A DNA stretch of 64,000 bases from Planctomycetales bacterium. Lineage in GTDB: Bacteria > Omnitrophota > Gorgyraeia > Zapsychrales > Zapsychraceae. The position numbers were made by a program, and so were the translations under genes. The stretch spans positions 13,627-77,626 of the forward strand of contig SBBO01000020.1 in assembly GCA_005239675.1 (NCBI GenBank), read 5' to 3'. The notes under the pieces are model-generated. The model made no database searches and had not been told where the DNA came from. It saw only the letters and a program-made list of their open reading frames with translations. Below are positions 2,015 through 64,000 of the stretch, in pieces. The first letter of the stretch is position 1; each line of letters opens with the position of its first letter.

Positions 2015-2026
2015 GAGGACGAACGG

Positions 2027-8758: not shown

Positions 8759-9723
8759 ACAATGAAGTCAAACAATTCGGTCGTATCGGTGTCCTGATGG
8801 GGGGATATTCTTCCGAACGGGAAATCTCTCTAAAATCAGGCCATGCGATCACTGAAGCCCTGCGTAGGCAAGGCTGCGATGTGATTGCGCTCGATATCGT
8901 TGAACAAGATCGAGAAAATATATTATCCTATATTCGGCAGCGGTCATTGGATCTGGCGTTTATTGCGCTACACGGGCGCCTGGGCGAAGATGGCACCATT
9001 CAGTCCGTCCTCGAGGAGCTTAACGTGGTGTACACGGGTTCCGGTGTTGTGTCCAGTCGAATCGCTATCGACAAGGTATTAACTCAGGACTTATTCCAGA
9101 AAAGTGGGATCATGGTTCCCGACCATATCAGCCTGTCTATGAAGGATACAGCGCGTCATGCCCGCGTTATCCGAGAAATAGATTTTTTTCCAGTTGTCGT
9201 CAAGCCTGCCAGGCAGGGTTCCAGCATTGGTATCAGTCTGGTGCGCGCGCCAGAAGGCCTCGCGGGGGCCGTGCGCGAGGCAGGGGAATACGACGACAAG
9301 ATCTTGGTCGAGCAATATATCCAGGGCAAAGAACTGACCGTTGGTGTCTTAGATAGAGAGGCGCTTCCCGTTATTGAAATCCGTCCCCAGGGGGAATTCT
9401 TCGATTTCACGTCGAAATATAGCTTAGGCAGAAGCGATTACATCATCCCGGCACCGTTATTGCCGGCGATTGCGGCCATGGTTAGTCAGATGGCGCTACG
9501 GGCGCACCAGGTCCTGGGATGTATGGATTTTTCGCGAGTGGATTTTATCCTAGCGGATGATGGTGTTCCCTATGTCTTGGAAGTCAATACGATTCCCGGA
9601 TTTACATCCACCAGCTTATTGCCGAAAGCAGCCCAGGCCATTGGCATTGATTTTGACCATCTATGCCTGCGGCTGGCAGGATTGGCGTATGATAAAAAAA
9701 AGAAGATCAAATACGTTTTCTAA
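8755..9723 (+). CDS. ddl: D-alanine--D-alanine ligase
   Basis: 322 aa with an ATP-grasp fold (GRIGVLMGGYSSEREISLKSG ... EVNTIPG). ATGA overlaps the murC stop. Confidence 0.88.
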   Translation: MNNEVKQFGRIGVLMGGYSSEREISLKSGHAITEALRRQGCDVIALDIVEQDRENILSYIRQRSLDLAFIALHGRLGEDGTIQSVLEELNVVYTGSGVVSSRIAIDKVLTQDLFQKSGIMVPDHISLSMKDTARHARVIREIDFFPVVVKPARQGSSIGISLVRAPEGLAGAVREAGEYDDKILVEQYIQGKELTVGVLDREALPVIEIRPQGEFFDFTSKYSLGRSDYIIPAPLLPAIAAMVSQMALRAHQVLGCMDFSRVDFILADDGVPYVLEVNTIPGFTSTSLLPKAAQAIGIDFDHLCLRLAGLAYDKKKKIKYVF

Positions 9724-33678: not shown

Positions 33679-33761
33679 TGCCGAAGGTGGGAGTTGAACC
33701 CACACCGGGTTGCCCCGACTGGTTTTTGAGACCAGCGCGTATGCCATTTCGCCACTTCGGC
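33679..33761 (-). tRNA. tRNA-Leu (anticodon CAA), type II with a long variable arm; no genome-encoded CCA
   Basis: The rc reads GCCGAAGTGGCGAAATGGCATACGCGCTGGTCTCAAAAACCAGTCGGGGCAACCCGGTGTGGGTTCAACTCCCACCTTCGGCA. The 7-bp acceptor GCCGAAG/CTTCGGC, the anticodon loop CUCAAAA, and the T-arm GTGGG-TTCAACT-CCCAC are all present. Discriminator A, then TAA rather than CCA. Confidence 0.85.
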
Positions 33762-34220: not shown

Positions 34221-34296
<76 letters not shown>

Positions 34297-50157: not shown

Positions 50158-53124
50158 ATGATTTGGCGCGTTGAGATAAGAAATAAGGCCGGTATTTTTG
50201 ATGCTCAGGGTCACGGTATCCAGAAAGACACTGTCGATCTAGGAATTCAATCGGTCCATCAGGTCGATGTCGTTGAGATCTACAATCTTGAAGGTGATCG
50301 TTTTTTCTCTGAGGAAGACCTCGTGAGGATTTGTCGTGAATTGTTCGTGGATAGTATTGCTCAAGATTATGCCTATTTCAAGCTTGACGGTCTATCGCGT
50401 AGCGACAATCCCGTTTGTCATCCAATCGAAATTGCCTACAATGCCGGCGTGATGGATCCGGCAGAAGAATCCATCCTCAAGGGGATTCGCGATTTAGGGA
50501 TTCAGAGTGTCCAGGCAGTTCGCCGCGCCCGCCTTTATCTTTTTTATGGCCCCATCCTCCCCAAAGACTTGGATATCATTACCAATAAGATTCTCTCCAA
50601 TAAGCTGATTCAGCATGTGGTTCCTGATCCTTGGAGATATAAGACGCTTGTGGGGACACCTGATACGCAAATTCAGCAAACATTTAAGGCGCTGGACATT
50701 GACTTGGCGCATGCCAGCGACCAGCAGCTCAAGGCGATCAGCCGCCATGGGCAACTATTTTTGAATCTAAATGAGATGAAGGCCATTCAAAAATATTTTT
50801 GTAGGCTCGGGCGCAATCCGACCGACTGTGAGCTGGAGACAATTGCCCAGACATGGAGTGAGCATTGTTATCATAAAACTTTTCGCGGCGACATCCGTTA
50901 TCGCTATCAAGAAAACGGCAAGACAAAGACGAAACGCATACAGAATCTCCTTAAGTCCACGATCATGAAGGCCACACACGAAGTGAACAAACCCTGGTGC
51001 GTCTCAGTCTTTCATGATAATGCCGGTGTCATTCGTTTTTCGAAAAATATGCATGTGTGTTTCAAGGTGGAGACCCATAACCACCCCTCGGCCCTGGAGC
51101 CATTTGGTGGCGCCAACACGGGAGTAGGCGGTGTGATTCGCGACATCTTGGGCACCGGATTAGGTGCCAAACCGATTTGCAACACGGATATCTTTTGTTT
51201 TGCGCCACACCCCATGTCTTCGGCGAGTCTGCCGCCTGGTACGTTGCATCCCCAGCGCATTATGAAAGGGGTTGTGAGCGGGGTGCGTGATTATGGTAAC
51301 AAGATGGGCATCCCAACGGTCAATGGGGCGATTGTGTTTGATGAGCGGTTCGTGGGCAATCCTTTAGTTTTTTGTGGCAGCGTGGGACTTCTTCCAAAGG
51401 ATAAAGTCAGGAAAAAGGTACGCAAAGGTGATTGGATTGTGCTGGTGGGCGGCAGGACAGGTCGCGACGGCATTCATGGGGCGACTTTTTCTTCGGGGGA
51501 GTTGACGCAGGAATCCGAGATCGTGTCCTGTGGCGCGGTCCAGATTGGTGATCCTATTCAGGAAAAGAAAATGCTTGATTGTCTGATTGCGGCGCGGGAC
51601 AAAAATTTGTATACGGCCATCACCGATTGCGGGGCTGGCGGGCTTTCCAGCGCCGTAGGAGAGATGGCCGCTAGAACTTCTCCAGAAGGCAAGGACTTGG
51701 GGGTTCATGTTGATTTAGACAATGTGCCGCTCAAGTACCAGGGGTTGAGGTACGATGAGATCTGGATCTCAGAATCGCAGGAGCGGATGGTCTTGGCAGC
51801 GCCGCCGAACAAGATTAAGGCGCTGTTGGAAATTTTTACCGGGGAGAACGTCGAAGCGACCGCGATTGGTACATTTACCGCGAGCGGACGTTTGGAATTA
51901 TTTTTCCAAGGGCATCAGGTTTGCAATCTGGATATGGGCTTTCTTCATCGCGGTATTCCCAGGATTACTAAAGAGGCATTCTGGCAGCCGCCGAAAACAA
52001 CAACACCGTCATTATTCTCTAAGACAACGGATCTTAATGCCAAACTTAAAGAGATCTTGGGCCATTACAACGTTTGTTCTAAGGAACGGGTCATCCGCCA
52101 ATACGATCACGAGGTCCAGGGGGCGAGCGTGATTAAACCCTTGGTCGGGATGCATGCAGACGGGCCATCGGATGCCAGTGTCCTGGCACCCGAGTTAGGC
52201 TCGGTCAAGGGCATGGCGATCGCCAACGGCATCAATGTCCGTTACGGCATGATCGATCCTTTCTGGATGGCGGCGTCTTGTATTGATGAAGCGATCCGCC
52301 AGATTATTGCCGTGGGGGGTGATCGGCGTTTTATTGCCCTTTTGGATAATTTTTGCTGGGGCAATCCCGACAAGCCAGATCGACTGGGGAGTCTTGTGCG
52401 TGCGGCCCAGGGTTGTTATAAGACGGCCGTTGGCTACGGAGTTCCATTTATTTCCGGCAAGGACAGTTTGTACAACGAATATACCCATGACGGTGAGTCC
52501 ATTGCCATCCCGGGGACATTGCTTATCTCAGCTATTGGTATTATAGCGGATGTGACCAAGGCGGTTACTATGGATTTAAAAGAGCCAGGCAATTTGATTT
52601 ATATGATTGGTAATACATATAATGAACTTGGTGGGTCCATTTATTTGGATACTTATGGCACGCTGGGTCACCATGTCCCTCATGTTGATGTGCGTCAGGG
52701 CAGTCAGATTTTTGATGCCGTTACTAAGGCTGTTCAAAAGGGGCTAGTGCGCTCTTTGCATGACTGTTCAGAAGGAGGTCTCGGCGTTGCCATAGCCGAG
52801 ATGGCGTTTAGCGGGGGTTGGGGGGTGACCCTACGGTTGGATCAAGTTCCCTACAAGGGTAAAGACAGGTGTAATGATATTATATTTTTCGCGGAATCAA
52901 ATTCACGTTTTTTAGTAGAGGTTGAGCCAAGAAATCAAAAGAGATTTGAACGGGTCCTGTGCGCCAGCCACGCCATTGGCAGGGCCGGCGCAGTGCCGTA
53001 CGCAGTTATTGGAACAGTCGAGCAGCAGCCGTCTTTGGTTGTGTATGGTGACCGGGGTGAGCGCTGTGGGGATTCACCTATCGAAGATTTGAAACAGGCC
53101 TGGCAGCGGCCGCTTGCGTGGTAA
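50158..53124 (+). CDS. purL: fused PurS-PurL phosphoribosylformylglycinamidine synthase (no glutaminase domain)
   Basis: 988 aa. The N-terminal ~85 aa are PurS-like, followed by small-PurL AIR-synthase-related domains (HNHPSALEPFGGANTGVGGVIRD ...). There is no GATase domain; purQ is a separate gene. Confidence 0.82.
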   Translation: MIWRVEIRNKAGIFDAQGHGIQKDTVDLGIQSVHQVDVVEIYNLEGDRFFSEEDLVRICRELFVDSIAQDYAYFKLDGLSRSDNPVCHPIEIAYNAGVMDPAEESILKGIRDLGIQSVQAVRRARLYLFYGPILPKDLDIITNKILSNKLIQHVVPDPWRYKTLVGTPDTQIQQTFKALDIDLAHASDQQLKAISRHGQLFLNLNEMKAIQKYFCRLGRNPTDCELETIAQTWSEHCYHKTFRGDIRYRYQENGKTKTKRIQNLLKSTIMKATHEVNKPWCVSVFHDNAGVIRFSKNMHVCFKVETHNHPSALEPFGGANTGVGGVIRDILGTGLGAKPICNTDIFCFAPHPMSSASLPPGTLHPQRIMKGVVSGVRDYGNKMGIPTVNGAIVFDERFVGNPLVFCGSVGLLPKDKVRKKVRKGDWIVLVGGRTGRDGIHGATFSSGELTQESEIVSCGAVQIGDPIQEKKMLDCLIAARDKNLYTAITDCGAGGLSSAVGEMAARTSPEGKDLGVHVDLDNVPLKYQGLRYDEIWISESQERMVLAAPPNKIKALLEIFTGENVEATAIGTFTASGRLELFFQGHQVCNLDMGFLHRGIPRITKEAFWQPPKTTTPSLFSKTTDLNAKLKEILGHYNVCSKERVIRQYDHEVQGASVIKPLVGMHADGPSDASVLAPELGSVKGMAIANGINVRYGMIDPFWMAASCIDEAIRQIIAVGGDRRFIALLDNFCWGNPDKPDRLGSLVRAAQGCYKTAVGYGVPFISGKDSLYNEYTHDGESIAIPGTLLISAIGIIADVTKAVTMDLKEPGNLIYMIGNTYNELGGSIYLDTYGTLGHHVPHVDVRQGSQIFDAVTKAVQKGLVRSLHDCSEGGLGVAIAEMAFSGGWGVTLRLDQVPYKGKDRCNDIIFFAESNSRFLVEVEPRNQKRFERVLCASHAIGRAGAVPYAVIGTVEQQPSLVVYGDRGERCGDSPIEDLKQAWQRPLAW

Positions 53125-53312: not shown

Positions 53313-53978
53313 ATGATTAAAAAAAACGTGGAAGTCGCGGAAGATTTTAAATTGGAAGACCCCTGGCGGGTCTTTCGGATTATGTCGGAATTCGTCGATG
53401 GATTTCATGAGCTCGCTGACATTGGCCCGGCGGTCAGTATCTTTGGGTCGTCACGCACCAAACGCACTAAGCGATGGTATAAACTCGCTGAACGCACCGC
53501 TGAGCTTTTGGTCAAGGAAGGCTACGCGGTTATTACCGGCGCCGGCCCCGGGATCATGGAGGCAAGCAACAAAGGGGCAATCAAGGCCAAGGGCAAGTCC
53601 ATTGGGCTCAATATTGATTTGCCTTTCGAGCAAAAACCTAACCGGTATATCAATCATCTCATTAAGTTTCATTACTTTTTTGCCAGGAAAGTGATGTTTG
53701 TCAAATACGCCAAGGCCTTTGTCATTTTTCCGGGTGGATATGGGACGCTAGATGAATTTACCGAGAGCATTACGCTAATCCAGACGCGGCGGATGGAACG
53801 ATTTCCTGTTATCCTTTTTGATAGTCACCATTGGAAAGGACTTATCCAATGGTTTAAAGATTCAGTCCTGAAGGCCGATAATATCGACCCCGAAGATTTG
53901 GAAATTTTTCAAATGGTGGACACCCCTCAAGAGGTCATCAAGGCCATCCGGGAGTTCTACAGTAATAGACGTCGGTAA
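53313..53978 (+). CDS. LOG-family protein (TIGR00730; cytokinin-riboside-5'-monophosphate phosphoribohydrolase-like)
   Basis: PGGYGTLDE motif, GAGPGIMEA, and a Rossmann-like fold. Size and motifs match the LOG family. Confidence 0.75.
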   Translation: MIKKNVEVAEDFKLEDPWRVFRIMSEFVDGFHELADIGPAVSIFGSSRTKRTKRWYKLAERTAELLVKEGYAVITGAGPGIMEASNKGAIKAKGKSIGLNIDLPFEQKPNRYINHLIKFHYFFARKVMFVKYAKAFVIFPGGYGTLDEFTESITLIQTRRMERFPVILFDSHHWKGLIQWFKDSVLKADNIDPEDLEIFQMVDTPQEVIKAIREFYSNRRR

Positions 53979-54005: not shown

Positions 54006-54818
54006 ATGTCGGTTCAAAAGGTCGCGGTTATCGTCTTAAGGACGGCAGGTACCAATTGCGATGGGGAGACTGCGTTTGCCTTTGAACGTTGCGGTGCCCG
54101 CGTGCGCCTGGCCCACATCCATCAGTTGTTTCTAGGGAAGGTGTGTTTGGATGATTTTCATATCTTGGTTATCCCTGGCGGTTTTACCTATGGGGACGAC
54201 ATCGCATCAGGCAAGATCCTTGCCAATGAATTGCGCCTGCGGCTGGGGAGTGACCTGCGCCAGTTTCTTGGTGGCGGCAAACTGATGATCGGCATATGCA
54301 ATGGTTTTCAGGTCTTCGTCAAGGCGGGGATTTTACCAGGACCGTTGGATGAAGGAGAACAAAAAAAACGCACGACTGGTCAACAGGCAACACTCACTAA
54401 CAATGATTCTGGAAAGTTTGAAGACCGCTGGTGTTATCTGAAATCCGAGGGCAATAGCATTTGGACCCAAGGCCTTGAACCCATCGTCTATCTTCCCGTT
54501 GCCCATGGGGAAGGGAAATTTGTGCCGCGTGATGACCATGTCTTGAATCAGTTAAGGCGCAATGGCCAGATTGCGCTGCGATATTGCACCAAAGAGGGCG
54601 GGAAACCTGCTTATCCACAGAACCCCAATGGTTCGGTTGATGACATCGCTGGTATAACTGATCAGACCGGTCGTATCTTTGGGTTAATGCCGCATCCGGA
54701 ACGCCATTTTCTTTTTATCCAGCATCCATTCTGGACACGGCTTAAAGCTAAGGGCCATTACGGCCAAGGGGCAAGAATTTTTCAGAATGGCGTTGATTAC
54801 GTCAGAAAGAATTTATGA
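54006..54818 (+). CDS. purQ: phosphoribosylformylglycinamidine synthase glutaminase subunit PurQ
   Basis: Class-I GATase with ICNGFQ (catalytic Cys) and a C-terminal H/E. Confidence 0.85.
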   Translation: MSVQKVAVIVLRTAGTNCDGETAFAFERCGARVRLAHIHQLFLGKVCLDDFHILVIPGGFTYGDDIASGKILANELRLRLGSDLRQFLGGGKLMIGICNGFQVFVKAGILPGPLDEGEQKKRTTGQQATLTNNDSGKFEDRWCYLKSEGNSIWTQGLEPIVYLPVAHGEGKFVPRDDHVLNQLRRNGQIALRYCTKEGGKPAYPQNPNGSVDDIAGITDQTGRIFGLMPHPERHFLFIQHPFWTRLKAKGHYGQGARIFQNGVDYVRKNL

Positions 54819-55828
54819 TGAGTGGTTTAACGTACAAAATGAGTGGCGTCAATATTAGCCAGGCCAATTGGTTTGTCCGTTCGATTCAGAAAGATATTGC
54901 CGGGACATTGAGCTCATCCGTCATTCGCTATCCAGGCGCCTTTGGTTCGTTATTCGCTTTTGACCGTAAGAAATACAAAAATCCCGTTTTGGTTTCTTCA
55001 ACCGATGGGGTGGGGACAAAATTGTTGGTGGCAAAAACGATGGGGTGTCATGACACGCTCGGGGTTGATTTGGTCGCCATGAATGTCAATGATATACTTT
55101 GTGTAGGGGCAAGGCCATTATTTTTTCTGGATTACATTGCTTGTGGCCGGTTGAACACCAAGGTATTGCAGGCCCTGGTGCGCGGGATGGCGCGCGGCTG
55201 CCGGCTGGCCGGATGTGCCTTGGTCGGCGGGGAGACCGCTGAGATGCCCGGGGTGTATGGCCCACAGGATTATGATCTGGCTGGGTTTGCCGTAGGCGTA
55301 GTTGACAAAGACCGAATTATCAATGGCAGCCGTATTCAGGCAGGCGACCAGGTCATTGGCTTACCGTCGAATGGCTTGCATGCCAACGGATTTTCCTTGG
55401 TGCGTAAAGCCTTGTCGTTACGCGAACAGAAGGGCCTGGCGCAAGAATTGTTAAAACCCACACGAATTTATGTCCGCGAGGTCTTGGCGATGATCGAGCG
55501 TTTTCCGATTAAAGGCATTGCCCATTTGACCGGCGGGGCATTCTACGAAAAGTTAACCAAGATTCTTCCTGTCGGAAAATGTTTTGTTATCGATCAAGGA
55601 TGGCCAGTACCAAAAATATTTCACATTATCCAAAAAAAAGGTAAAATAAAAAATTCGGAGATGTTCCGTACCTTTAATATGGGGATAGGGTTGGCGCTAG
55701 TCGTTGGGGTCAAAGAGACCCCCGCCCTGCGGTCATTTTTGGAGCGCCGCTCGATTGCCCATCATATAATCGGGAACGTAATGAACGATTCAAGACACCG
55801 TATTATATTCAACCATTTTTCTCTATGA
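54815..55828 (+). CDS. purM: phosphoribosylformylglycinamidine cyclo-ligase (AIR synthetase)
   Basis: 337 aa PurM fold. ATGATG overlaps the purQ stop. Confidence 0.85.
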   Translation: MMSGLTYKMSGVNISQANWFVRSIQKDIAGTLSSSVIRYPGAFGSLFAFDRKKYKNPVLVSSTDGVGTKLLVAKTMGCHDTLGVDLVAMNVNDILCVGARPLFFLDYIACGRLNTKVLQALVRGMARGCRLAGCALVGGETAEMPGVYGPQDYDLAGFAVGVVDKDRIINGSRIQAGDQVIGLPSNGLHANGFSLVRKALSLREQKGLAQELLKPTRIYVREVLAMIERFPIKGIAHLTGGAFYEKLTKILPVGKCFVIDQGWPVPKIFHIIQKKGKIKNSEMFRTFNMGIGLALVVGVKETPALRSFLERRSIAHHIIGNVMNDSRHRIIFNHFSL

Positions 55829-57126
55829 AGATTCTCATTATCGGTTCTGGTGGTCGGGAACATGCCCTGGCCTGGAAGATTAAAAAGAGTCCAGCTGTCA
55901 AGGAGCTTTATTGTGCCCCTGGCAACGGCGGGATCGCCTCGATCGCGCATTGTGTCGCTATTGACCCCAATGACATCGAAGGGCTTGCCGCCTTTGCTCA
56001 GGAAGAAAAGATCGGCCTTACAGTCGTTGGGCCCGAGGTACCTCTCGTTGCCGGTATCGTGGATGCTTTCGAAGAGAAAGGCCTTACGATATTCGGCCCG
56101 AATCGAAACGCCGCGCGTCTCGAGGGTAGCAAGGTCTTCGCCAAGGAGTTTATGCAGAAGTTCGGTATCCCAACAGCGCCTTTTAAAGTTTTTGAGGATA
56201 TCAATGAGGCGATGGAGTTTCTTGCGGTGGCGCCCGTGCCTTTGGTTATCAAGGCCGATGGCCTCGCCTCCGGCAAAGGGGTGATCGTCTGCGAAAAGAT
56301 CCAGGAGGCCCGCGATGCGGTCCAACAAATCATGGGCCAGAAGATATTCAAGGAGGCTGGTTCCCGGATAGTCATTGAGGAATACCTCTTTGGGGAAGAG
56401 GCTTCAATCCTGGCTATCAGTGACGGTAGAAATTACATGATTCTCGATTCCTCCCAGGACCATAAACGCATCTTCGATGATGACCTCGGACCCAATACAG
56501 GGGGCATGGGTGCGTATTCGCCAGCGCCGGTCATTACTGAAGAGATGTTAAGGAAGATAGGCATGCAGATCATGGAACCCACGATCCGCGGGATGCATAA
56601 ACAAGGCGCACCGTTTAAGGGGGTTTTATATGCGGGGCTGATGATAACCGATGACGGCCCCATGGTTTTGGAGTTCAATGTGCGTTTCGGGGACCCTGAG
56701 GCGCAGGCGGTCCTGCCGCGCATGAAAAATGATTTGGTGGATGTCTTGCAGGCCAGCTGCAGCGGCCGTTTAGATAAGATCAAGATGGAATGGGACAAAC
56801 GTAGCTGTGTATGTGTCGTGATGAGCTCCGGTGGATACCCCGGGGATTACACCATTGGAAAAGAGATCAAAGGGCTTGATACCGTTAAAGAGAGCCAGAT
56901 CATCGTTTTTCACGCCGGCACCAAAAAGGAAGGTAGTACGATAGTAACAGCAGGCGGGCGCGTCTTGGGCGTGACCAGTTTAGGCAATGACATCGAGCAG
57001 GCGATTGCCCGCGTTTACAAAGCGGTTGAGAAAATTAAGTTTGATCGGTGCTTTTTCCGACGGGACATTGGTGCAAAGGCCTTGAAGCATCTCCATCCAT
57101 CGCCGCAGACGACGATGCGAAGATAA
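55825..57126 (+). CDS. purD: phosphoribosylamine--glycine ligase
   Basis: MKILIIGSGGREHALAWK N-terminus and an ATP-grasp fold. It overlaps the purM stop. Confidence 0.88.
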   Translation: MKILIIGSGGREHALAWKIKKSPAVKELYCAPGNGGIASIAHCVAIDPNDIEGLAAFAQEEKIGLTVVGPEVPLVAGIVDAFEEKGLTIFGPNRNAARLEGSKVFAKEFMQKFGIPTAPFKVFEDINEAMEFLAVAPVPLVIKADGLASGKGVIVCEKIQEARDAVQQIMGQKIFKEAGSRIVIEEYLFGEEASILAISDGRNYMILDSSQDHKRIFDDDLGPNTGGMGAYSPAPVITEEMLRKIGMQIMEPTIRGMHKQGAPFKGVLYAGLMITDDGPMVLEFNVRFGDPEAQAVLPRMKNDLVDVLQASCSGRLDKIKMEWDKRSCVCVVMSSGGYPGDYTIGKEIKGLDTVKESQIIVFHAGTKKEGSTIVTAGGRVLGVTSLGNDIEQAIARVYKAVEKIKFDRCFFRRDIGAKALKHLHPSPQTTMRR

Positions 57127-57144: not shown

Positions 57145-57678
57145 ATGAAAAGAATTCAAGTTGCGATCATGATGGGAAGTCAGTCCGATTTTCTCGTAAT
57201 GGAAGAAGCGGGCTGTATTTTAGAAGAATTTAAGGTGGATTATGAGATGAGGGTCCTTTCTGCCCATCGCACCCCTAAAGAAACCGCCGCGTACGCTGAA
57301 GGCTTGAAGGCGCGGGGCGTTCAGGCGGTCATCTGTGGGGCTGGTGCCTCCGCAGCGCTGGCTGGATTTGTGGCTGCCCATATTGATATCCCTGTTATCG
57401 GCGTGCCTATTGACTCTACACCGCTTAACGGCATAGACGCGCTTCTTTCCACCGTACAGATGCCACCAGGGGTTCCCGTCGCTGCTATGGCGGTGGGAAA
57501 ATTCGGCGCTAAGAATGCCGCGCTCTTTGCCTTGCGCATCATAGCCCTGACCGATGACAAGATTGCGGGAAAGCTAACTCACATGAAGGAGGAGCAAAGG
57601 CAGAAAATCCTAGATATCACGTTGCCTAGAAGCAAGAAGATTCCCTTAAAAGTCCAATCAGCGAACGCGAAGAAATAA
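57145..57678 (+). CDS. purE: 5-(carboxyamino)imidazole ribonucleotide mutase PurE
   Basis: 177 aa PurE fold (IMMGSQSD...VIGVP). No purK is in the window. Confidence 0.85.
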   Translation: MKRIQVAIMMGSQSDFLVMEEAGCILEEFKVDYEMRVLSAHRTPKETAAYAEGLKARGVQAVICGAGASAALAGFVAAHIDIPVIGVPIDSTPLNGIDALLSTVQMPPGVPVAAMAVGKFGAKNAALFALRIIALTDDKIAGKLTHMKEEQRQKILDITLPRSKKIPLKVQSANAKK

Positions 57679-57682
57679 CGCA

Positions 57683-58744
57683 TTGAAGACACAGATATTA
57701 GAAGCCCATCCCCAGTTTCCTGAAGCCAAAACGATAGCGTATTGCGCGCAGATCATTCGTAGGGGAGGGCTCGTTGTTTTTCCTACGGAGACGGTTTATG
57801 GTCTGGGGGCGAATCTCGCCAATGAGACGGCGATGCAGCGTCTGCGGGAGGTCAAAAGGCGTGATCCTGGCAAACCATTTTCTATCCTTATCGCGCAGAT
57901 CGGGCTTATCTCTAATTACACATCTACCATGGATACGAATTTGTACAAGGTAATTGATGCGTATTGGCCGGGACCTTTGACAGTGGTGGTACCGGCCAAG
58001 GAGCCAGGACAGACGATCGGTGTACGCATGCCGGATCATCCGATTGCGTTACGGCTGGTGCAAGAGTCTCAGTGCACCATTGCCGCACCATCGGCAAATT
58101 TCGAAGGGAATCCCGCGCCAACGACGTGTCAGGAGGCATTGCAGGATTTAAATGGCCTGGTTGATGTGGCCATTGACGGCGGGCCAGCTAAGATCGGCAT
58201 CGGATCTTCCGTCGTTGACATGGCGCATGGCATCCCCAAGGTTTTGCGCCAGGGTGTCATCACCCAAGAGGACCTCGACCGCGTTGTCCAGAAAAAGACC
58301 ATCCTTTTTGTGTGCACGGGTAATAGCTGCCGGTCGGTCATGGCGCAATACCTTTTGCGCAGCATGCTTGCCGGAAGAAAGGACGTAGAGGTGCTTTCCG
58401 CGGGGACTGGGGTGTTTTTTCAGACAACGGCCAGTGCAGAGACCATTGCCGTGCTCAAGGAAGATGGGATCGATGCCTCTCAACATATATCCACGGCCAT
58501 TAATTCGATTCTTTTGAAAAAATCAGATTTGATTTTCGTGATGACGCGTAATCACCATCAGCAAGTCCTGGACCGCGTGCCGCAGGTCGAACAAAAGGTA
58601 TACCTTTTAAGGGAATTTATTGATACGCCCGCGGGCCTTGTGGATAGCGATGTGCCAGATCCCATTGGCCAGCCGCACTACGCGTATAAGGAGTGCCTGG
58701 CGATCATCAAAGAGGCCATACACAAGATTGTTGGGTTGATTTAA
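57683..58744 (+). CDS. tsaC: fused L-threonylcarbamoyladenylate synthase (TsaC/YrdC domain) - low-molecular-weight protein phosphatase (LMW-PTP/YwlE-like)
   Basis: The N-terminal ~190 aa is a YrdC fold (GGLVVFPTETVYGLGA...). The C-terminal ~150 aa has the LMW-PTP P-loop VCTGNSCRS (CX5R) and a DP motif. Confidence 0.8.
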   Translation: MKTQILEAHPQFPEAKTIAYCAQIIRRGGLVVFPTETVYGLGANLANETAMQRLREVKRRDPGKPFSILIAQIGLISNYTSTMDTNLYKVIDAYWPGPLTVVVPAKEPGQTIGVRMPDHPIALRLVQESQCTIAAPSANFEGNPAPTTCQEALQDLNGLVDVAIDGGPAKIGIGSSVVDMAHGIPKVLRQGVITQEDLDRVVQKKTILFVCTGNSCRSVMAQYLLRSMLAGRKDVEVLSAGTGVFFQTTASAETIAVLKEDGIDASQHISTAINSILLKKSDLIFVMTRNHHQQVLDRVPQVEQKVYLLREFIDTPAGLVDSDVPDPIGQPHYAYKECLAIIKEAIHKIVGLI

Positions 58745-58745
58745 G

Positions 58746-59207
58746 ATGACATCGAAAGTTTTTATCGGCGCGGACCATCGGGGATTTTCGCTTAAAAGCA
58801 AAATCATTGAGCTGTTGGGCCGTTGGGGGCATTGTGTTGAAGATATGGGCACCTTTGATGAGGACCAGCCTTGCGATTATCCACAAGTGGCGCACAAGGT
58901 TGCCCGGGCAGTCGCAAAGACCAAAGGCAGTCGTGGGATTCTGATGTGTATGTCTGGCATCGGCCAGACGATTGCGGCTAACAAGGTCCCTGGGGCGTAT
59001 GCCGCTCTTTGTTATAATGCTACGGCTGCCGCCCTATCCCGTCAGCATAATAATGCAAATATTTTGGTGCTTGGCGCGAAATTTGTTAAGTCGAAGGAAA
59101 TCCCTAAGATTTTAAATGCTTGGTTTGCTAGCGATTTTGAGGGCGGCCGCCACCAGCGGCGGTTTGAACAAATCAAGAAAATAGAAAAAGGACAGTTAAG
59201 CAATTGA
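58746..59207 (+). CDS. rpiB: ribose-5-phosphate isomerase B (RpiB/LacAB family)
   Basis: 153 aa ([10 protein letters not shown]...[16 protein letters not shown]). Confidence 0.85.
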
Positions 59208-59245
59208 ATAGAGGGACAATGAATCCAACCGTAGAAAGAAGGAAA

Positions 59246-60499
59246 ATGATGCAACATCTCAAAGAAACCGATCCAGCTATTTATAAAGCGATCCAGGATG
59301 AGCTCGAGCGTGAGCAGAATAATCTCGAACTAATCGCCTCAGAGAACATCGTTTCAGAGGCGGTCTTGGAGGCGCAAGGATGTTTAATGACCAATAAATA
59401 TGCCGAAGGGTACCCGGCTGCGCGTTGGTATGGTGGATGTGAACATGTTGATGCGGTTGAACAATTAGCTATTGACCGTGCCAAGCAGCTTTTCGGTGCA
59501 GAGTATGTCAACGTCCAGCCGCATTCGGGTTCCCAGGCCAACATGGCCGTGTATCTGGCTGCCCTAGAATATGGGGATACCGTGTTGGCCATGGATTTGG
59601 CCTGTGGTGGGCATCTGACGCATGGTCTTAAGATCAATTTTTCTGGCCGGTCGTACAATTTTGTCACGTATAAAGTTAATCGCCAAACGGAGATGTTGGA
59701 TTACGGTGAGATCCAGGCCCTCGCTAAAGAACATAAACCAAAACTAATTGTCTGCGGCGCCTCTGCCTATTCGCGGATAATTGATTTCAAGAAGTTTAGA
59801 GAAATCTGTGATACCGTGGGGGCGCTTCTTTTCGTTGACATGGCGCATATTGCGGGATTGGTCGCGGCGGGAATGCATCCGAATCCGGTGCTTTATGCGG
59901 AATTTGTGACAACAACGACCCACAAGACTCTGCGGGGTCCCCGTGGGGGGATGATTCTTTGCCGTCAGGAGTTTGCCAAGAAAATCAATTCGGTTGTTTT
60001 CCCTGGTATCCAAGGAGGGCCCTTGATGCACGTGATCGCGGCCAAGGCCGTGTCGTTCAGGGAGGCCTTGACGAAAGAATTCCAAGAGTATCAACAGCAG
60101 ATTGTCAAGAATGCTCAGGCCTTTGCCAAAGAAATGGCCCGGCTTGGCTATCGTATTGTCACTGGAGGCACAGATAATCATTTGTTTATGGTGGATCTGC
60201 GTTCCAAGAACACAACCGGCAAGGAGACCGCGGCGGTCTTGGATAGGGTGGGCATTACGGTTAATAAAAATTTAATTCCCTTCGACCCGCAGCCGCCTGT
60301 CGTTACCAGCGGCATCCGGATAGGTACCCCGGCAGTCACGACCCGCGGGATGAAGGAAAGACAAATGCAGGAAATTGCTGGTCTCATCGACCAGACCATT
60401 CTGGGCAAAGACAATGAGGGCAAATTGGCGAAGATCAAGACCTGCGTGCATGAATTGACCGAGCAGTTTCCGATCTATAGAGATTTATTTTTAAGATGA
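59246..60499 (+). CDS. glyA: serine hydroxymethyltransferase
   Basis: SHMT fold with the PLP-Lys motif [13 protein letters not shown]. The ATG at 59246 has a GAAGGAAA RBS and fits the GlyA N-terminus. The ORF-track start was an upstream in-frame codon at 59204. Confidence 0.9.
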
Positions 60500-61008
60500 A
60501 ATGCCCGTCCTGCGGATATTCAGAGACAAAGGTCATTGATTCACGGCTCAATAGTGACGGGACCTCGATTCGCCGCCGGCGGGAATGCCTGAAATGTGAA
60601 AAGCGTTTTACCACATACGAATACATTGAAACGGTGCCGTTCTTGGTTGTCAAGCGTGATGGTCGTCGTCAGTATTTTGACCGCAAGAAGATCATTGCAG
60701 GGCTGATAAAGGCCTGCGAAAAACGGCCTGTCAGTCTTGATCGAATAGAGGAGATCACTAGCGATATTGAGCGGGTTATTCAACGTCAATACGACCGTGA
60801 GGTTAATTCCAAAGAAATTGGGGAATTGATTATGGGGAAGCTGGTGGATTTAGATGAGGTTGCCTATGTTCGGTTTGCCTCTGTGTACCGACAGTTTCGT
60901 GACGTAAACCAGTTTATGAACGAGCTTCAGGGTATGCTTAAGAAGGAGCCTCCTTACCAGCAGATGGTTTATCCCAGAAGGCGAACCAAGAAAGGTGGCG
61001 ATGGATGA
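60496..61008 (+). CDS. nrdR: transcriptional repressor NrdR
   Basis: N-terminal zinc ribbon CPSCG...CLKCEKRF and an ATP-cone domain. ATGA overlaps the glyA stop. Confidence 0.9.
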
Positions 61009-61412
61009 TTCAAGTAGAATTAAGTAAGATTATTATCGATGAAAAAAGACAGGACCAGGTCATTGTCTTGAAAGAGAAACACGGCGAACGCCAGCTGCCG
61101 ATCGTAATCGGCTTTCTAGAGGCCTCCAGCATCAAGATGAAGCTCTCCGGTATTGAGCCGCCCCGGCCGATGACGCACGATCTCATCGTTGCAATCTTCC
61201 AAGGACTCGAGGCCAAACTTTCAAGATTAATCATCGACAAGATGATCGCCAACACCTTCCACGCTAAGTTGGAGTTCAGGATTAAAAATGGGGAAATCAG
61301 GTTTATCGATGCGCGTCCTTCCGATGGAGTTGCCCTTGCGGTACGCACTGGTGCACCGATCTTTATTGAGGAAGATGTCCTTAAGAAAGCGGCCATCATC
61401 AAAATAGAGTAA
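61005..61412 (+). CDS. bifunctional-nuclease-family protein (DUF151/BFN domain)
   Basis: 135 aa. The motifs (LPIVIGFLEA...RPMTHDL...IDARPSDGVALAVR) match the BFN domain. It overlaps the nrdR stop. Confidence 0.65.
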   Translation: MIQVELSKIIIDEKRQDQVIVLKEKHGERQLPIVIGFLEASSIKMKLSGIEPPRPMTHDLIVAIFQGLEAKLSRLIIDKMIANTFHAKLEFRIKNGEIRFIDARPSDGVALAVRTGAPIFIEEDVLKKAAIIKIE

Positions 61413-61413
61413 T

Positions 61414-62886
61414 ATGTCTCTCTTGAAAGACTACCCTTTCATACAAGTTATTCAGGACATTGCCAGACACCGCAAGGTGGCCGTGTATCTGGTGGGTGGA
61501 TTTCTACGTGATTATCTGCTCGGCGCAGATCACGCCGGATCCGGGTCCTTAAACCCTATGTGTTTTAAGGATTTTGATTTTGCTGTTGAAAAAGAGGCCC
61601 TCAGCTTCGCTCGTCTTTTTGCCCGGAAGATCCGTGGGGCTTATGTCCTTTTAGACAAGGAGCGTGGCTGTGCGCGCGTCGTGCACCAGTGCCTTGGCCA
61701 AACTAGTATCTGCGATTTTGCCGATTTCAGGGCACACCCTTTCGCCAAGGACTTGGCACACCGTGATTTTACAATTAATACTTTGTCTATTGATGTGCAT
61801 AAGCTTGAGCGTTCCACCGCTATCACCGATGCCTTGGCCGATTATAAAGATGGGATCAAGGACCTGCGAGCCAAGCGCATCCGCCGGGTCTCAGTTAAGG
61901 CATTCCGGGAGGATCCACTACGCCTATTACGGGCCTTTGGCCTTTGCGCAGTATTGGGTTTCAAGGTTGAACGTGTCACCTTGACCCAGATCCATCGGGA
62001 AAAGGATTTATTGCGTGATGCCTCCTATGAACGCATTCGTGATGAACTGTTTAAGATTCTCACAACCAATCGAGCAGCTGCAACCCTTAAGGCCATGGAC
62101 AAGGTTGGATTATTGGAAAAGATCATCCCGCAGGTGAAGGTAATGTACGCCTGCGCCCAGGGACCATATCACCATCTGAACGTCTGGCGCCATACCTTGG
62201 AGGCGGTTGTCCAGTTTGAAGATGTTATCACCCAGACTAACGGCCAGGCCCAAGTTGTTGATTATCTTAATGAATCCTTGGGAGGCAATCGTCCGCGTCG
62301 GGCGCTTTTAAAATTGGCGTTACTGTTGCATGATATCGGCAAGCCCCAGACGCGCCGTCAAGAAAAGGGGCGCATGACGTTTTACGGACACGAACGCGTC
62401 GGCAAGAATATCACCACCCACATCGCCCGCATGCTGAAACTCTCGGTGCGCGAGCGCCACGCCCTCGAGGACATGGTCCTCTGGCATCTGCGTCCTGGCT
62501 ATTTGTCTAATTTCCGCAAGCCAAGCGAGAAGGCCATCTACCGATATTTTCGTGACACTAAACAGGAAGCTGTAGGAATTTCATTACTGTCGCTCGCCGA
62601 TCAACGGGCAACACGGGGACCCTTGACAACAGCGCACGATCAAAGGCATCATGAACGGATCTGTCTTAATTTGGTGCAGCGGTATTTTGACAAGAAAAAG
62701 GAAAGACCATTCGTACGTCTTATTAACGGCCATGAGGTGATGCGACGTTGGCGCTTGTCGCCATCGCCTTTAATCGGCAAGATTCTTCGGGAAGTGGCGG
62801 AAGGGCAGGCATTGGGCAAGATCCACACCAAAGAAGAGGCGCTCGTCTTAGCGGGCAGGATAGTGCACAAAGGCAAGTTGCCATGA
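61414..62886 (+). CDS. cca: CCA-adding tRNA nucleotidyltransferase / poly(A) polymerase family enzyme with a C-terminal HD domain
   Basis: Class-II NTase head (VGGFLRDYLLG...DFD...RDFTINT) followed by an HD domain (LLLHDIGKP). The start is 2 nt after the BFN stop. Confidence 0.8.
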   Translation: MSLLKDYPFIQVIQDIARHRKVAVYLVGGFLRDYLLGADHAGSGSLNPMCFKDFDFAVEKEALSFARLFARKIRGAYVLLDKERGCARVVHQCLGQTSICDFADFRAHPFAKDLAHRDFTINTLSIDVHKLERSTAITDALADYKDGIKDLRAKRIRRVSVKAFREDPLRLLRAFGLCAVLGFKVERVTLTQIHREKDLLRDASYERIRDELFKILTTNRAAATLKAMDKVGLLEKIIPQVKVMYACAQGPYHHLNVWRHTLEAVVQFEDVITQTNGQAQVVDYLNESLGGNRPRRALLKLALLLHDIGKPQTRRQEKGRMTFYGHERVGKNITTHIARMLKLSVRERHALEDMVLWHLRPGYLSNFRKPSEKAIYRYFRDTKQEAVGISLLSLADQRATRGPLTTAHDQRHHERICLNLVQRYFDKKKERPFVRLINGHEVMRRWRLSPSPLIGKILREVAEGQALGKIHTKEEALVLAGRIVHKGKLP

Positions 62887-63821
62887 GGATCAAAGATATC
62901 GAGGTCAAGATACTACGCAATGATATCACACAGTTGGACGTGGATGCCATTGTTGTAGCAGCCAACAGTCGCTTGACCATGGAAGGAGGGTTAGCGGCAT
63001 TCATTAAGAAGGAAGGCGGTCCGGCCATTGAAGAGGAGGCTATGTCCAAAGGGCCTGTCGCGCAAGGAACCGTGGTGAAGACCAAGGCCGGGGGATTGAA
63101 GACCAAATACATTCTACATGCCGTTATCCAAGAAGGGGATGAACCGGCACAAGAGGAGGTCCTGCGTAAGGCGGTTGCCTGTGCCCTTAGGTGCGCTAAA
63201 GAGCATCACATGCGGTCGCTTATGTTTCCAGCTCTAAACTGCGACAACGGTGAGTTTTCGCCAATCGGTGCGGCCAAGATCATGGTCCAGGAAGTGATGA
63301 AATGTGCCCGAGATCCCCAGATGACAGTGCGCGAGGTCGTCTTTTGCTTGTATGACGAAGAAACTTTCCGTACGTTTGATCGTACCATTCGTGGCTATAT
63401 TAGCCATATGATCAATGATTTAGGTTTTGGCCCTTATGCGACGGTTGATATTATCATTGAATATGAAGGGGGCGTCATTCTTGTTGAGCGTTCAAACCCT
63501 CCGTACGGTTGGGCCCTACCAGGTGGATTTGTTGAATATGGAGAAAGCCTGGAGCAAGCCGCGGTGCGCGGGGTCAAGGAGGAGACGAATTTGGATCTGG
63601 CGGATTTGCGGCAGTTCCACACCTATTCGGCACCAGGCCGCGATCCGCGTTTTCATACGATTTCAACGATCTTCATCGCCGATGGTATCGGCAAGCCAAT
63701 CCCTGGCGACGATGCGGCCAACGTGAAGATCGTGCGATACGAAGACCTCCTGCAAGGCAATTACGCCTTTGACCACAAAGAGATCCTTGAGGAGTATCTG
63801 GTGGAAAAGGATTTAGATTAA
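62883..63821 (+). CDS. fused Macro domain (ADP-ribose binding / processing) - Nudix hydrolase
   Basis: The ATG at 62883 overlaps the cca stop (ATGA). The N-terminal ~180 aa is a macro domain (DVDAIVVAANSRL...GGLAA...YILHAV). The C-terminal ~130 aa has the Nudix box GGFVEYGESLEQAAVRGVKEETNL. The ORF-track upstream extension (62748) has a low-complexity N-terminus inside cca. Confidence 0.78.
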   Translation: MRIKDIEVKILRNDITQLDVDAIVVAANSRLTMEGGLAAFIKKEGGPAIEEEAMSKGPVAQGTVVKTKAGGLKTKYILHAVIQEGDEPAQEEVLRKAVACALRCAKEHHMRSLMFPALNCDNGEFSPIGAAKIMVQEVMKCARDPQMTVREVVFCLYDEETFRTFDRTIRGYISHMINDLGFGPYATVDIIIEYEGGVILVERSNPPYGWALPGGFVEYGESLEQAAVRGVKEETNLDLADLRQFHTYSAPGRDPRFHTISTIFIADGIGKPIPGDDAANVKIVRYEDLLQGNYAFDHKEILEEYLVEKDLD

Positions 63822-63829
63822 GAGGGCCA

Positions 63830-64000
63830 TGTGCAATTGTACAAACTCTCCAAAGTCGTCTTGCGCGTTCGAAATAATCCTGCCTCATTTTTAAATGGCC
63901 TCACGACCAACACTTTAGAGCAGTCCCGCAACGCCTTTGTTAATGTCCACGGCCGCATCGTCGCCACTTTTGACCAAGTCAAGATCAGCGAAGATGAATG
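63830..64000 (+). CDS. 5' part of a downstream ORF truncated at the window edge (possibly a YgfZ/GcvT-like folate-binding protein)
   Basis: The frame is open from GTG 63830 to the window end (VQLYKLSKVVLRVRNNPASFLNGLTTNTLEQ...). Resemblance to the N-termini of YgfZ/aminomethyltransferase-like proteins is weak. Confidence 0.3.

Follow-up and report, generated by a model that had tools for sequence, protein, structure and literature searches.

The DNA analysed here is a window of 64,000 nucleotides (assembly GCA_005239675.1, contig SBBO01000020.1, positions 13,627 to 77,626 of the forward strand), and the subject of this study is a gene close to its 3' end, in which a macro domain and a Nudix hydrolase domain are joined in a single polypeptide (Macro-Nudix). 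This gene is preceded by nrdR, by a gene with a BFN/DUF151 domain and by cca, which encodes a class II tRNA nucleotidyltransferase. An earlier note on this DNA had read the four genes as an operon and as a candidate channelled module for the processing of ADP-ribose-phosphate and RNA ends. If true, this pathway would provide bacteria with a dedicated means of disposing of ADP-ribose-phosphate in connection with the repair of tRNA ends and would also give DUF151 a role. The evidence presented below favors another reading, for which we estimate a probability of about 0.65: the four genes are the tail of a gene string inherited in Omnitrophota, Macro-Nudix is a self-contained enzyme for clean-up or salvage of ADP-ribose, and its place in the string is a matter of inherited gene order. 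The Macro-Nudix fusion is a near-universal housekeeping protein of Omnitrophota and a candidate for an enzyme that releases and destroys ADP-ribose within one polypeptide. The four genes are the following.

60496..61008, + strand: nrdR, Zn-ribbon and ATP-cone repressor (TIGR00244, Pfam)
61005..61412, + strand: BFN/DUF151-domain gene, homologue of TM0160 (Pfam BFN_dom)
61414..62886, + strand: cca, class II tRNA nucleotidyltransferase with C-terminal HD domain (Pfam PolyA_pol, PolyA_pol_RNAbd, HD)
62883..63821, + strand: Macro-Nudix fusion, 312 amino acids (aa) (Pfam Macro and NUDIX in one polypeptide)

The Macro-Nudix family

The products of all four genes pass the Pfam gathering cut-offs, which bears out the domain assignments of the earlier note including those of macro and Nudix, and its description of the last gene as one polypeptide with both domains is likewise correct. 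In this protein Pfam Macro covers residues 24-134 with 78.3 bits (cut-off 22) and NUDIX residues 187-304 with 77 bits (cut-off 21.1). An AlphaFold2 model based on 106 homologues (predicted local distance difference test score 94.1, predicted template modelling score 0.90) predicts a fixed arrangement of the two domains, which are connected by a long helix formed by residues 159-180. The reading frame starts at ATG 62883 (MRIKD..) according to the alignment of homologues, all of which begin with M-[KRN]-I-K/G; the mechanical list of open reading frames (ORFs) had let it begin at TTG 62748.

An identical copy of the protein is found in one NCBI metagenome-assembled genome (MAG) and in one Logan contig. 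Its homologues form at least 120 protein clusters of 52-75% identity, all of which contain both domains, and the named members among these clusters belong to Candidatus Omnitrophica/Omnitrophota. A scan of one genome per species with Macro-Nudix yielded 587 confirmed matches, and the best 80 of them were used to define species loci; nearly all of these 80 are labelled Omnitrophota or 'uncultured Planctomycetes' MAGs from third-party annotation (TPA) entries. The source organism is a member of the Omnitrophota. The closest relative of the window protein among the DNA loci is 66% identical. Across the family the Nudix half has a mean pairwise identity of 74% and the macro half of 55%.

Are the two halves found apart from each other? 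The fusion holds throughout the at least 120 clusters, but stand-alone homologues of each half also exist: Nudix proteins (57-60% identical) and one macro protein are encoded in surroundings that have nothing in common with the array, where both the other half and cca are missing. Databases already annotate proteins of the fused type as deacetylase/ADP-ribose pyrophosphatase fusions, and a full-text literature search found neither a characterised Macro-Nudix fusion nor a link of such a fusion to cca. The domains and the logic of their fusion are already known.

Conservation of the gene neighbourhood

How tightly is Macro-Nudix associated with cca in related genomes? Seven proteins of the window were placed by tblastn in the 80 species loci, 69 of which are informative in the upstream direction. 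In 24 of these 69 loci Macro-Nudix comes immediately after cca, the arrangement whose recurrence the earlier note had asked to be checked. In 34 loci it lies 0.4-7.4 kb downstream of cca on the same strand with inserted genes in between, and in the remaining 11 cca is not upstream of it. For each junction of the array, adjacency was then expressed as the number of loci with adjacent genes divided by the number of loci in which both genes are seen.

sua5 to rpiB: 25/26 (96%)
rpiB to glyA: 27/27 (100%)
glyA to nrdR: 12/35 (34%), a dCMP-deaminase-like gene (assigned by eye) being usually inserted
nrdR to BFN: 43/43 (100%)
BFN to cca: 38/48 (79%)
cca to Macro-Nudix: 24/58 (41%)

The junction between cca and Macro-Nudix is among the less conserved ones of the array, and only that between glyA and nrdR is lower. 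The two invariant junctions are nrdR to BFN and rpiB to glyA. Given the high conservation of the BFN protein and the unbroken linkage of nrdR and BFN in all 43 loci, a functional pairing may make more sense for nrdR and DUF151 than for cca and Macro-Nudix.

The genes inserted between cca and Macro-Nudix are functionally unrelated. According to Pfam they encode, in the same direction, an AsmA-family protein, a UPF0047/YjbQ protein, a membrane protein, endonuclease III (nth), TrpB-like and TrpD proteins, a dCTP-deaminase-like protein (dcd) and an aspartyl protease, to which a YfcE-type phosphoesterase was added by eye. Immediately upstream of Macro-Nudix, the nucleotidyltransferase gene is the most frequent neighbour (23 loci) and UPF0047 a close second (22 loci); downstream, the most frequent one is a convergent gene that by eye resembles a Ski2-like helicase. 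The 22 loci with a UPF0047/YjbQ-like gene of 138 aa directly upstream of Macro-Nudix belong to one large Omnitrophota clade (L014-L067). An AsmA-family gene of about 811 aa is located a few genes upstream of Macro-Nudix in 21 loci and, in the loci of the range L014-L067, directly follows the nucleotidyltransferase gene; in L044, for example, the AsmA-family gene occupies 2927-5362 and the UPF0047/YjbQ-like gene 5373-5789.

In a neighbour-joining tree of the fusion protein, loci with adjacent genes are distributed over several clades and loci with inserted genes fill one large clade. This scattering indicates that adjacency of cca and Macro-Nudix is probably ancestral. More distant fusions are found in different surroundings. 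One of 35% identity, which has canonical macro loops, is flanked by aroA and a GH94 gene, with dnaE further upstream and no nucleotidyltransferase gene; another, 42% identical, follows rpmB, also with no cca. A third, of 40% identity, lies on a 3.3-Mb contig in the same nine-gene array purD-purE-sua5/PTP-rpiB-glyA-nrdR-BFN-cca-fusion, and its N-terminal half is not recognisable as a macro domain. Genes stay adjacent even when the macro domain has degenerated or escapes detection, so the arrangement is independent of macro catalysis. Taken together, the adjacency of cca and Macro-Nudix is probably a gene order inherited within one phylum.

Gene spacing in a compact genome

The overlaps that suggested a special coupling of the four genes do exist. 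The glyA stop codon (TGA 60497-60499) overlaps the nrdR start codon (ATG at 60496), that of nrdR (TGA 61006-61008) the BFN start (ATG at 61005) and that of cca (TGA 62884-62886) the Macro-Nudix start (ATG at 62883), in each case by the four nucleotides ATGA. The ORFs lie where the earlier note had placed them, but the spacer between the BFN stop (TAA ending at 61412) and the cca start (ATG at 61414) is one nucleotide (position 61413) and not two. Tight packing, however, is no peculiarity of these four genes. At least 12 consecutive co-directional genes, from purQ (54006) to an ORF at 63837, follow each other in the order purQ-purM-purD-purE-tsaC/PTP-rpiB-glyA-nrdR-BFN-cca-macro/nudix-ygfZ-like, and their spacers range from -4 to +18 nt; going upstream from glyA to purQ, the spacers are -4, +1, +4, +18, -4 and -4 nt. 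In the window as a whole, 27 of the 45 same-strand neighbour pairs are at most 20 nt apart, an overlap of exactly 4 nt is seen in nine of the 45, and spacers have a median length of 6 nt. The tight packing of these four genes is real, but the coupling runs through 12 genes and is the default spacing of the genome. With a window-wide median spacer of 6 nt, the close spacing of the four genes adds nothing beyond a compact genome and probable co-transcription. Tight spacing in compact genomes, this is the more general lesson, is no proof of a functional module.

A scan for promoters and terminators gave counts in the window near those of shuffled sequence (21 promoter-like elements as compared to 12.8 ± 4.1, and 11 terminator-like elements as compared to 12.9 ± 3.9) and thus does not delimit operons. 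The proposal of a channelled module linking the fusion protein to the CCA/HD enzyme and DUF151 receives no positive support from these data, as the junction is intact in 24/58 loci, the inserted genes are unrelated and the spacing is generic.

The macro half

62883..63356, + strand: macro domain, residues 1-158, Foldseek top match TTHA0132 (2dx6)
63237..63257, + strand: macro loop 2, residues 119-125, diphosphate-binding glycine loop, NCDNGEF as compared to consensus GCGVGGF

The closest known fold to the macro half is that of TTHA0132 (Foldseek TM-score 0.92 normalised to the target, 36% identity), which is itself uncharacterised and, unlike the window protein, not fused to a Nudix domain. 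The consensus of the family contains NAANN-L-MGGGVAG and GCGVGGF, with Ala at the position where MacroD enzymes carry the catalytic Asp, and in this respect resembles viral Mac1 and the first macro domain of PARP14. Coronavirus Mac1 also has Ala at the position of the MacroD catalytic Asp. MacroD, YmdB and Poa1p, which are O-acetyl-ADP-ribose deacetylases and ADP-ribose-1''-phosphatases, share with it the macro fold and, broadly, the class of ligands, and matches of the window macro domain to the structures of YmdB and MacroD1/2 have E values of about 1e-13 to 1e-14. As opposed to the MacroD enzymes, in which the motif is GG[VLI]D, the window protein reads GGLA. The MacroD signature Nx6GG[VLI]D with its loop G[VIA][YF]G is thus absent, the corresponding segments being N28-x6-GGLA, with Ala38 for Asp, and NCDNGEF in loop 2. 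All NCBIfam equivalog models for O-acetyl-ADP-ribose deacetylases and ADP-ribose-binding proteins score far below their cut-offs (for example 88.5 as compared to 200 bits).

Are the catalytic residues of the macro domain in place? Of the features expected in an ADP-ribose-binding domain of the Mac1 and TTHA0132 style, namely an adenine-binding Asp, the NAAN Asn, glycine loop 1 (GGG-V) and glycine loop 2 (G-x-G-[VI]), the window protein retains D14, N28, G35 and G36, but besides the missing MacroD Asp its diphosphate loop is disrupted. A macro domain devoid of catalytic residues, named in the earlier note as a ground for refutation, is thus in part what this protein shows. Loop 1 reads MEGGLA (G34E) and loop 2 contains the changes G119N, G121D, V122N and G124E, so that in comparison with macro domains of the TTHA0132 and Mac1 style the glycine loops of the window copy carry E34, N119, D121, N122 and E124. 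Canonical loops are present in about 62 of the 79 species orthologues, and altered loops occur in the clade that holds the window copy, the closest relative of which has GCDDGEF as loop 2. Moreover, in about 19 related clusters (P0003-P0024) loop 2 is GCAEEGFP and D, G or I stands at the place of the catalytic Asn. As GCAEEGFP is itself conserved in these clusters, it suggests a new function or state and not random decay. In some more distant fusions the macro half falls below Pfam detection. For the alphavirus nsP3 macro domain, viruses with the substitutions G32E and G112E were found to be non-viable (PMC8780475); in our own alignment, G36 of the family corresponds to alphavirus G32 and G121 to nsP3 G112.

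The Nudix half

63432..63803, + strand: Nudix domain, residues 184-307, NadM/NrtR-like according to its structural relatives and common motifs
63570..63572, + strand: codon GGG for Gly230, RGVKEET as compared to REAKEET, position of the Nudix-box 'RE' glutamate

Among proteins of solved structure, the Nudix half is closest to 2yyh from Aquifex (E 4.5e-29), followed by the NrtR-like proteins 3i9x and 2fml and by the NadM-Nudix protein 2qjo (E 1.4e-8), and the motifs ALPGGF, GRDPR and (A)FDH are common to all five. The NCBIfam models for NadM-Nudix and NtrR give matches with E values of 1e-8 to 5e-10, which are far below their cut-offs. Nudix domains of the NadM/NrtR type constitute 'ADP-ribose (2)', the second of two principal ADP-ribose pyrophosphatase clades (PMC5389931), and bind or cleave ADP-ribose (PMC5389931; PMC9503650); the function of 2YYH is given as undetermined (PMC5389931). 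The fusion protein is of the same Nudix sub-type as NadM-Nudix of Synechocystis (slr0787, 2QJO) and NrtR (3GZ5/3GZ8), yet it resembles them remotely (E 1e-8), is joined to a macro domain instead of an NMN (nicotinamide mononucleotide) adenylyltransferase or a winged helix, and in the window copy has Gly for the 'RE' glutamate of the Nudix box. Relatives of this Nudix domain are elsewhere fused to the NAD-linked NadC. Since ROK kinases, a hexapeptide transferase and a histidine kinase are further fusion partners of the same clade, ADP-ribose is only a best guess for the substrate. Prolines follow the Nudix box at +14 and +18, which leaves the rule of a proline about 15 residues downstream in ADP-ribose pyrophosphatases (ADPRases) ambiguous, and the rule was not used.

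In the window protein the Nudix box GX5EX7REUXEEXGU is incomplete, reading G215-x5-E221-x7-R229-G230-V-K-E233-E234-T-N-L. The replacement of its terminal G by N is family-wide, but the exchange E230G is unique to the window copy, as the other approximately 130 family members have RE[AVMIT]KEET and one of them RQ at this position. The GGG codon is the same in Logan contig L001, though both assemblies may derive from the same reads. The glutamate at the position of residue 230 is a metal ligand or critical catalytic residue in MutT (E53) and NUDT5 (E112). Taken together, the acidic, non-glycine macro loop and a Nudix box devoid of its key glutamate suggest that the window copy probably has reduced activity or has taken on a role in binding or regulation.

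nrdR, BFN and the nucleotidyltransferase

The assignment of nrdR is unambiguous: TIGR00244 scores 206.2 bits (cut-off 124.65), which makes the protein a member of this equivalog family, and Pfam finds Zn_ribbon_NrdR (78 bits) at residues 1-42 and the ATP-cone (89.6 bits) at residues 51-136. The product of the next gene matches BFN_dom (PF02577) with 126.8 bits (cut-off 27) and TM0160 (PDB 1vjl/1sj5) with an E value of 4e-21. Across its best 120 homologue clusters it is 73-93% identical and thereby more conserved than the nucleotidyltransferase or Macro-Nudix. The window protein is of the same single-domain BFN/DUF151 type as TM0160 of Thermotoga and Cor/Rv1829 of M. tuberculosis, of which Cor is known only from a carbon monoxide resistance phenotype. 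The earlier note had called it a nuclease. Nuclease activity is documented for plant BBD proteins, which in contrast to the single-domain window protein have extra domains, and a nuclease role of this protein in an RNA pathway is unsupported.

The nucleotidyltransferase matches Pfam PolyA_pol (54.7 bits), PolyA_pol_RNAbd (55.9 bits) and HD (36.6 bits, cut-off 22). The head motifs of class II enzymes are present, with GGFLRD at residue 28, DFD at 53, HRDFTIN at 116 (motif B, with R to H in the first position) and EDPLR at 166, as are the metal-binding residues of the HD domain, namely HH at 253-254, H306-D307 within LLLHDIGKP and later H and D residues; the HDIG model TIGR00277 gives 33.5 bits (cut-off 27.6). 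The full CCA-adding equivalogs, on the other hand, are not reached, the best of them, TIGR02692, scoring 128.6 as compared to 438.8 bits and NF008137 scoring 71.5 as compared to 451 bits. The best PDB match is the CC-adding enzyme of Aquifex aeolicus (3WFO, E 2e-43), which aligns over residues 19-481 and thus over head, neck, body and HD region, as compared to an E value of only 2e-13 for the A-adding enzyme 1VFG/4WBY. The two proteins also have in common a short loop before motif B, where a full CCA-adding enzyme would be expected to have the long flexible loop needed for addition of A76; counted from DFADFR to motif B it is four residues shorter in the window enzyme than in the Aquifex CC-adding enzyme. 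Albeit, it should be noted that the sequences are distantly related, that the likeness is one of sequence only, and that such a short loop, though suggested to be a hallmark of CC addition, is not a sufficient determinant (PMC3925840). It could be imagined that the nucleotidyltransferase adds only CC instead of the full CCA, which hints at a possible division of CCA synthesis between two enzymes in Omnitrophota.

A second nucleotidyltransferase match in L063 was considered as an A-adding partner and turned out to be the relocated orthologue of the same HD enzyme and not a paralogue. Homologue searches with the nucleotidyltransferase and with BFN returned named matches that are all from Omnitrophota. 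Synthesis of CCA is needed for at least some tRNAs of the organism, since one tRNA gene of the window, that for tRNA-Leu(caa), is devoid of encoded CCA.

33679-33761 and 34221-34296, - strand: tRNA-Leu(caa) and tRNA-Ala(ggc), listed in that order

In the gene for tRNA-Ala(ggc), by contrast, CCA is encoded. The multifunctional Cca of E. coli combines, as the window enzyme does, a class II head and an HD domain in one protein, and it is from this enzyme that the phosphodiesterase activity invoked in the earlier note was borrowed. With NF008137 at 71.5 as compared to 451 bits and a closer likeness to the CC-adding enzyme of Aquifex, the HD activities of E. coli Cca are not simply transferable to the window enzyme.

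Possible function of the fusion protein and alternative explanations

How could Macro-Nudix act? According to the reading that we prefer, the region would form the far end of an extended string of housekeeping genes, all in one direction and probably transcribed together, that was inherited as a block in Omnitrophota and comprises genes for purine synthesis, tsaC/PTP, rpiB, glyA, nrdR, BFN, the tRNA 3'-end nucleotidyltransferase and Macro-Nudix. In most family members the macro domain, which is similar to viral Mac1 and TTHA0132, would bind an ADP-ribose ester or conjugate and free ADP-ribose, and the NadM-type Nudix domain would subsequently split ADP-ribose into AMP and ribose-5-phosphate. 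The place of the gene behind that of the nucleotidyltransferase would reflect inherited order in a compact genome and no dedicated pathway with the CCA/HD enzyme or BFN. The fusions PurS-PurL, BioD-BioA and Sua5-phosphatase, each within one pathway, support a Rosetta-stone reading, in which Macro and Nudix would catalyze consecutive steps. Such a sequence of macro and Nudix reactions, as already put forward in the earlier note, is reasonable for a family with a Nudix domain of the NadM/NrtR clade and mostly canonical macro loops, but the window copy is the least canonical one examined.

Several points weigh against this reading. In 58 of the 69 species (84%), cca and Macro-Nudix are found on the same strand within 8 kb at 45-55% protein identity, a co-occurrence that exceeds the usual neutral drift, so their co-expression may be selected. 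The assignment of ADP-ribose as substrate derives from a distant relationship with NadM-Nudix (E about 1e-8) and from the domain joined to the Nudix half, and given the other fusion partners of the Nudix clade, the specificity may be broader. Furthermore, the closest solved structures, 2yyh for the Nudix half and 2dx6 for the macro half, are themselves without assigned function (for 2yyh, PMC5389931). The loss of activity proposed for the window copy is deduced from motif positions, and the two assemblies with E230G may share reads.

Overlapping with the preferred reading is the quite possible, if short of probable, explanation that the macro domain of the sub-clade is a structural, dimerisation, regulatory or other-ligand domain and that the window protein may be a low-activity pseudo-enzyme or sensor. 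It would account for the altered loop 2 (NCDNGEF, GCDDGEF and GCAEEGFP, the last being conserved and accompanied by D, G or I in place of Asn), for distant fusions with macro halves that Pfam does not detect, for the far higher conservation of the Nudix half and for E230G, which occurs in the window copy alone; the non-viable alphavirus mutants G32E and G112E (PMC8780475), aligned by us to G36 and G121, point in the same direction. Set against this, D14, N28 and G35-G36 are still present in the window protein, the fold is predicted with high confidence by AlphaFold2, the gene is intact and of full length, and, as the loops contact the phosphates through backbone amides, changes of side chains are not necessarily fatal. 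The repeated loss of canonical ADP-ribose loops in the macro half next to a fixed Nudix half amounts to a natural experiment on macro domains becoming non-catalytic. Unlikely, but compatible with the preferred reading and unproven, is an explanation by nucleotide economy, according to which the fusion protein, expressed jointly with the string, shares its metabolic theme instead of serving tRNA repair: it would recycle ADP-ribose to AMP and ribose-5-phosphate and so feed the purine and phosphoribosyl pyrophosphate (PRPP) pool, to which purQ/M/D/E, rpiB, glyA and the ygfZ-like gene also contribute. The chemistry of ADPRases, hydrolysis of ADP-ribose to AMP and ribose-5-phosphate, is established, and the products of the Nudix reaction would be substrates for rpiB-linked metabolism; genes for purine, one-carbon and ribose-phosphate metabolism dominate the string, nrdR is a regulator of the nucleotide pool, and the nine-gene block from purD to the fusion is kept on the distant 3.3-Mb contig. 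However, the string also carries tsaC, a phosphatase, BFN and a tRNA enzyme, the insertion of AsmA, nth, trp genes and a protease elsewhere makes for a loose theme, the surroundings of the out-group fusions (aroA, rpmB) are unrelated to purine metabolism, and no regulatory element was identified in a scan whose promoter and terminator counts are near those of shuffled sequence.

The module of the earlier note, in which nrdR, BFN, CCA/HD and Macro-Nudix would be dedicated to RNA ends and ADP-ribose-phosphate, is in our estimate very unlikely. In such a module the HD domain, BFN or both would act on tRNA ends or on an ADP-ribose cyclic phosphate. Removal of a phosphate or ester group from the resulting ADP-ribose by-product would fall to the macro domain, and the subsequent destruction of ADP-ribose to the Nudix domain. 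The same-strand co-occurrence of cca and Macro-Nudix within less than 8 kb in 58 of 69 species, with direct contact in 24 and a probably ancestral adjacency, speaks for it, as do the 4-nt overlap of stop and start codon between the two genes in the window, the intact HD motif and at least one window tRNA gene without encoded CCA. But tight coupling is generic in this genome, the junction is among the less conserved of the array and broken by unrelated genes, the out-group fusions next to aroA and rpmB are not beside cca, the adjacency is kept where the macro domain is degenerate, the window copy is devoid of both the canonical macro loop 2 and the Nudix-box glutamate, the model for E. coli Cca is far below its cut-off, and the reports of nuclease activity concern plant BBD proteins, bacterial proteins consisting only of DUF151 not being established as nucleases. 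In addition, the stretch scanned with Pfam, 33-64 kb of the window, yielded no domain of KptA/Tpt1, ADP-ribosyltransferases or sirtuins, which is weak evidence for a genome of at least 1 Mb; the scan did find genes for biotin and purine synthesis, tRNA modification and central metabolism and a LOG/SLOG protein. A variant of this idea, in which the CC(A)/HD enzyme and Macro-Nudix form one route for repair of RNA 3'-ends or 2'-phosphates and the acidic-loop macro domains bind another ligand, has if anything a slimmer chance, even if the 84% same-strand co-occurrence within 8 kb leaves some room for it. A defence-system reading was rejected: PADLOC gave only weak generic Cas3-HD matches (E about 2e-4) and one generic Nudix match (PDC-S07, E 7e-8), and the context is one of housekeeping genes. 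The most useful leads are the invariant pair of nrdR and DUF151, a possible split of CC and A addition, and the decay or re-tooling of the macro domain beside a fixed Nudix domain.

The other genes of the string and of the window

The genes that precede nrdR in the uninterrupted run, and the ORF that follows Macro-Nudix, are listed below.

54006..54818, + strand: purQ-type glutamine amidotransferase (Pfam GATase_5, E 3.3e-79), first gene of the uninterrupted tight run
54815..55828, + strand: purM, aminoimidazole ribonucleotide (AIR) synthase (Pfam AIRS and AIRS_C), with 4-nt overlaps with purQ and purD
55825..57126, + strand: purD, glycinamide ribonucleotide (GAR) synthetase (Pfam GARS_N, GARS_A and GARS_C)
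57145..57678, + strand: purE, AIR carboxylase (Pfam AIRC, E 2.3e-56)
57683..58744, + strand: fusion of TsaC/Sua5 (threonylcarbamoyl-AMP synthase) and a low-molecular-weight phosphatase, 353 aa (TIGR00057 and LMW-PTP/ArsC-like models)
58746..59207, + strand: rpiB, ribose-5-phosphate isomerase B (NCBIfam NF004051, 173.9 bits, cut-off 135)
59204..60499, + strand: glyA, serine hydroxymethyltransferase (NCBIfam NF000586, 643.6 bits, cut-off 335)
63837..64000, + strand: YgfZ/GcvT-like ORF, 225 aa, 15 nt 3' of Macro-Nudix and running past the end of the window (full ORF in L001, 3399-4076)

In the TsaC/Sua5-phosphatase fusion, NCBIfam TIGR00057 covers residues 9-201 with 185 bits (cut-off 123) and the LMW-PTP/ArsC-like models cover residues 203-345; the gene is syntenic in 26 related loci. 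The same genes are found in the same order upstream of nrdR in the window string and in a housekeeping cluster of Bacillus subtilis, whose order is sua5 (ywlC), LMW phosphatase gene (ywlE), rpiB (ywlF) and glyA. This common order shows the string to be an ancient housekeeping synteny. In contrast to B. subtilis, Omnitrophota have fused sua5 and the phosphatase gene, and their string runs on into nrdR-BFN-cca-Macro-Nudix.

The YgfZ-like ORF of 225 aa has no Pfam match. It contains the motif KGCFLGQEP typical of YgfZ/GcvT folate-binding proteins and gives weak PDB matches to 3ttg (aminomethyltransferase) and CAF17 (E 0.06-0.2), and it is kept only in close relatives (L003, L011 and L017). A LOG/SLOG-family protein (PF03641, PF18306) is encoded at 53313-53978 between purSL and purQ. 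The PurS-PurL fusion (988 aa) is located at 50158-53124 and the BioD-BioA fusion (688 aa) at 39417-41483. At the other end of the window, positions 1-9723 are likewise occupied by many closely packed + strand genes, which to judge from ORF sizes and N-terminal sequences look like a cluster for cell wall and division (mur/fts).

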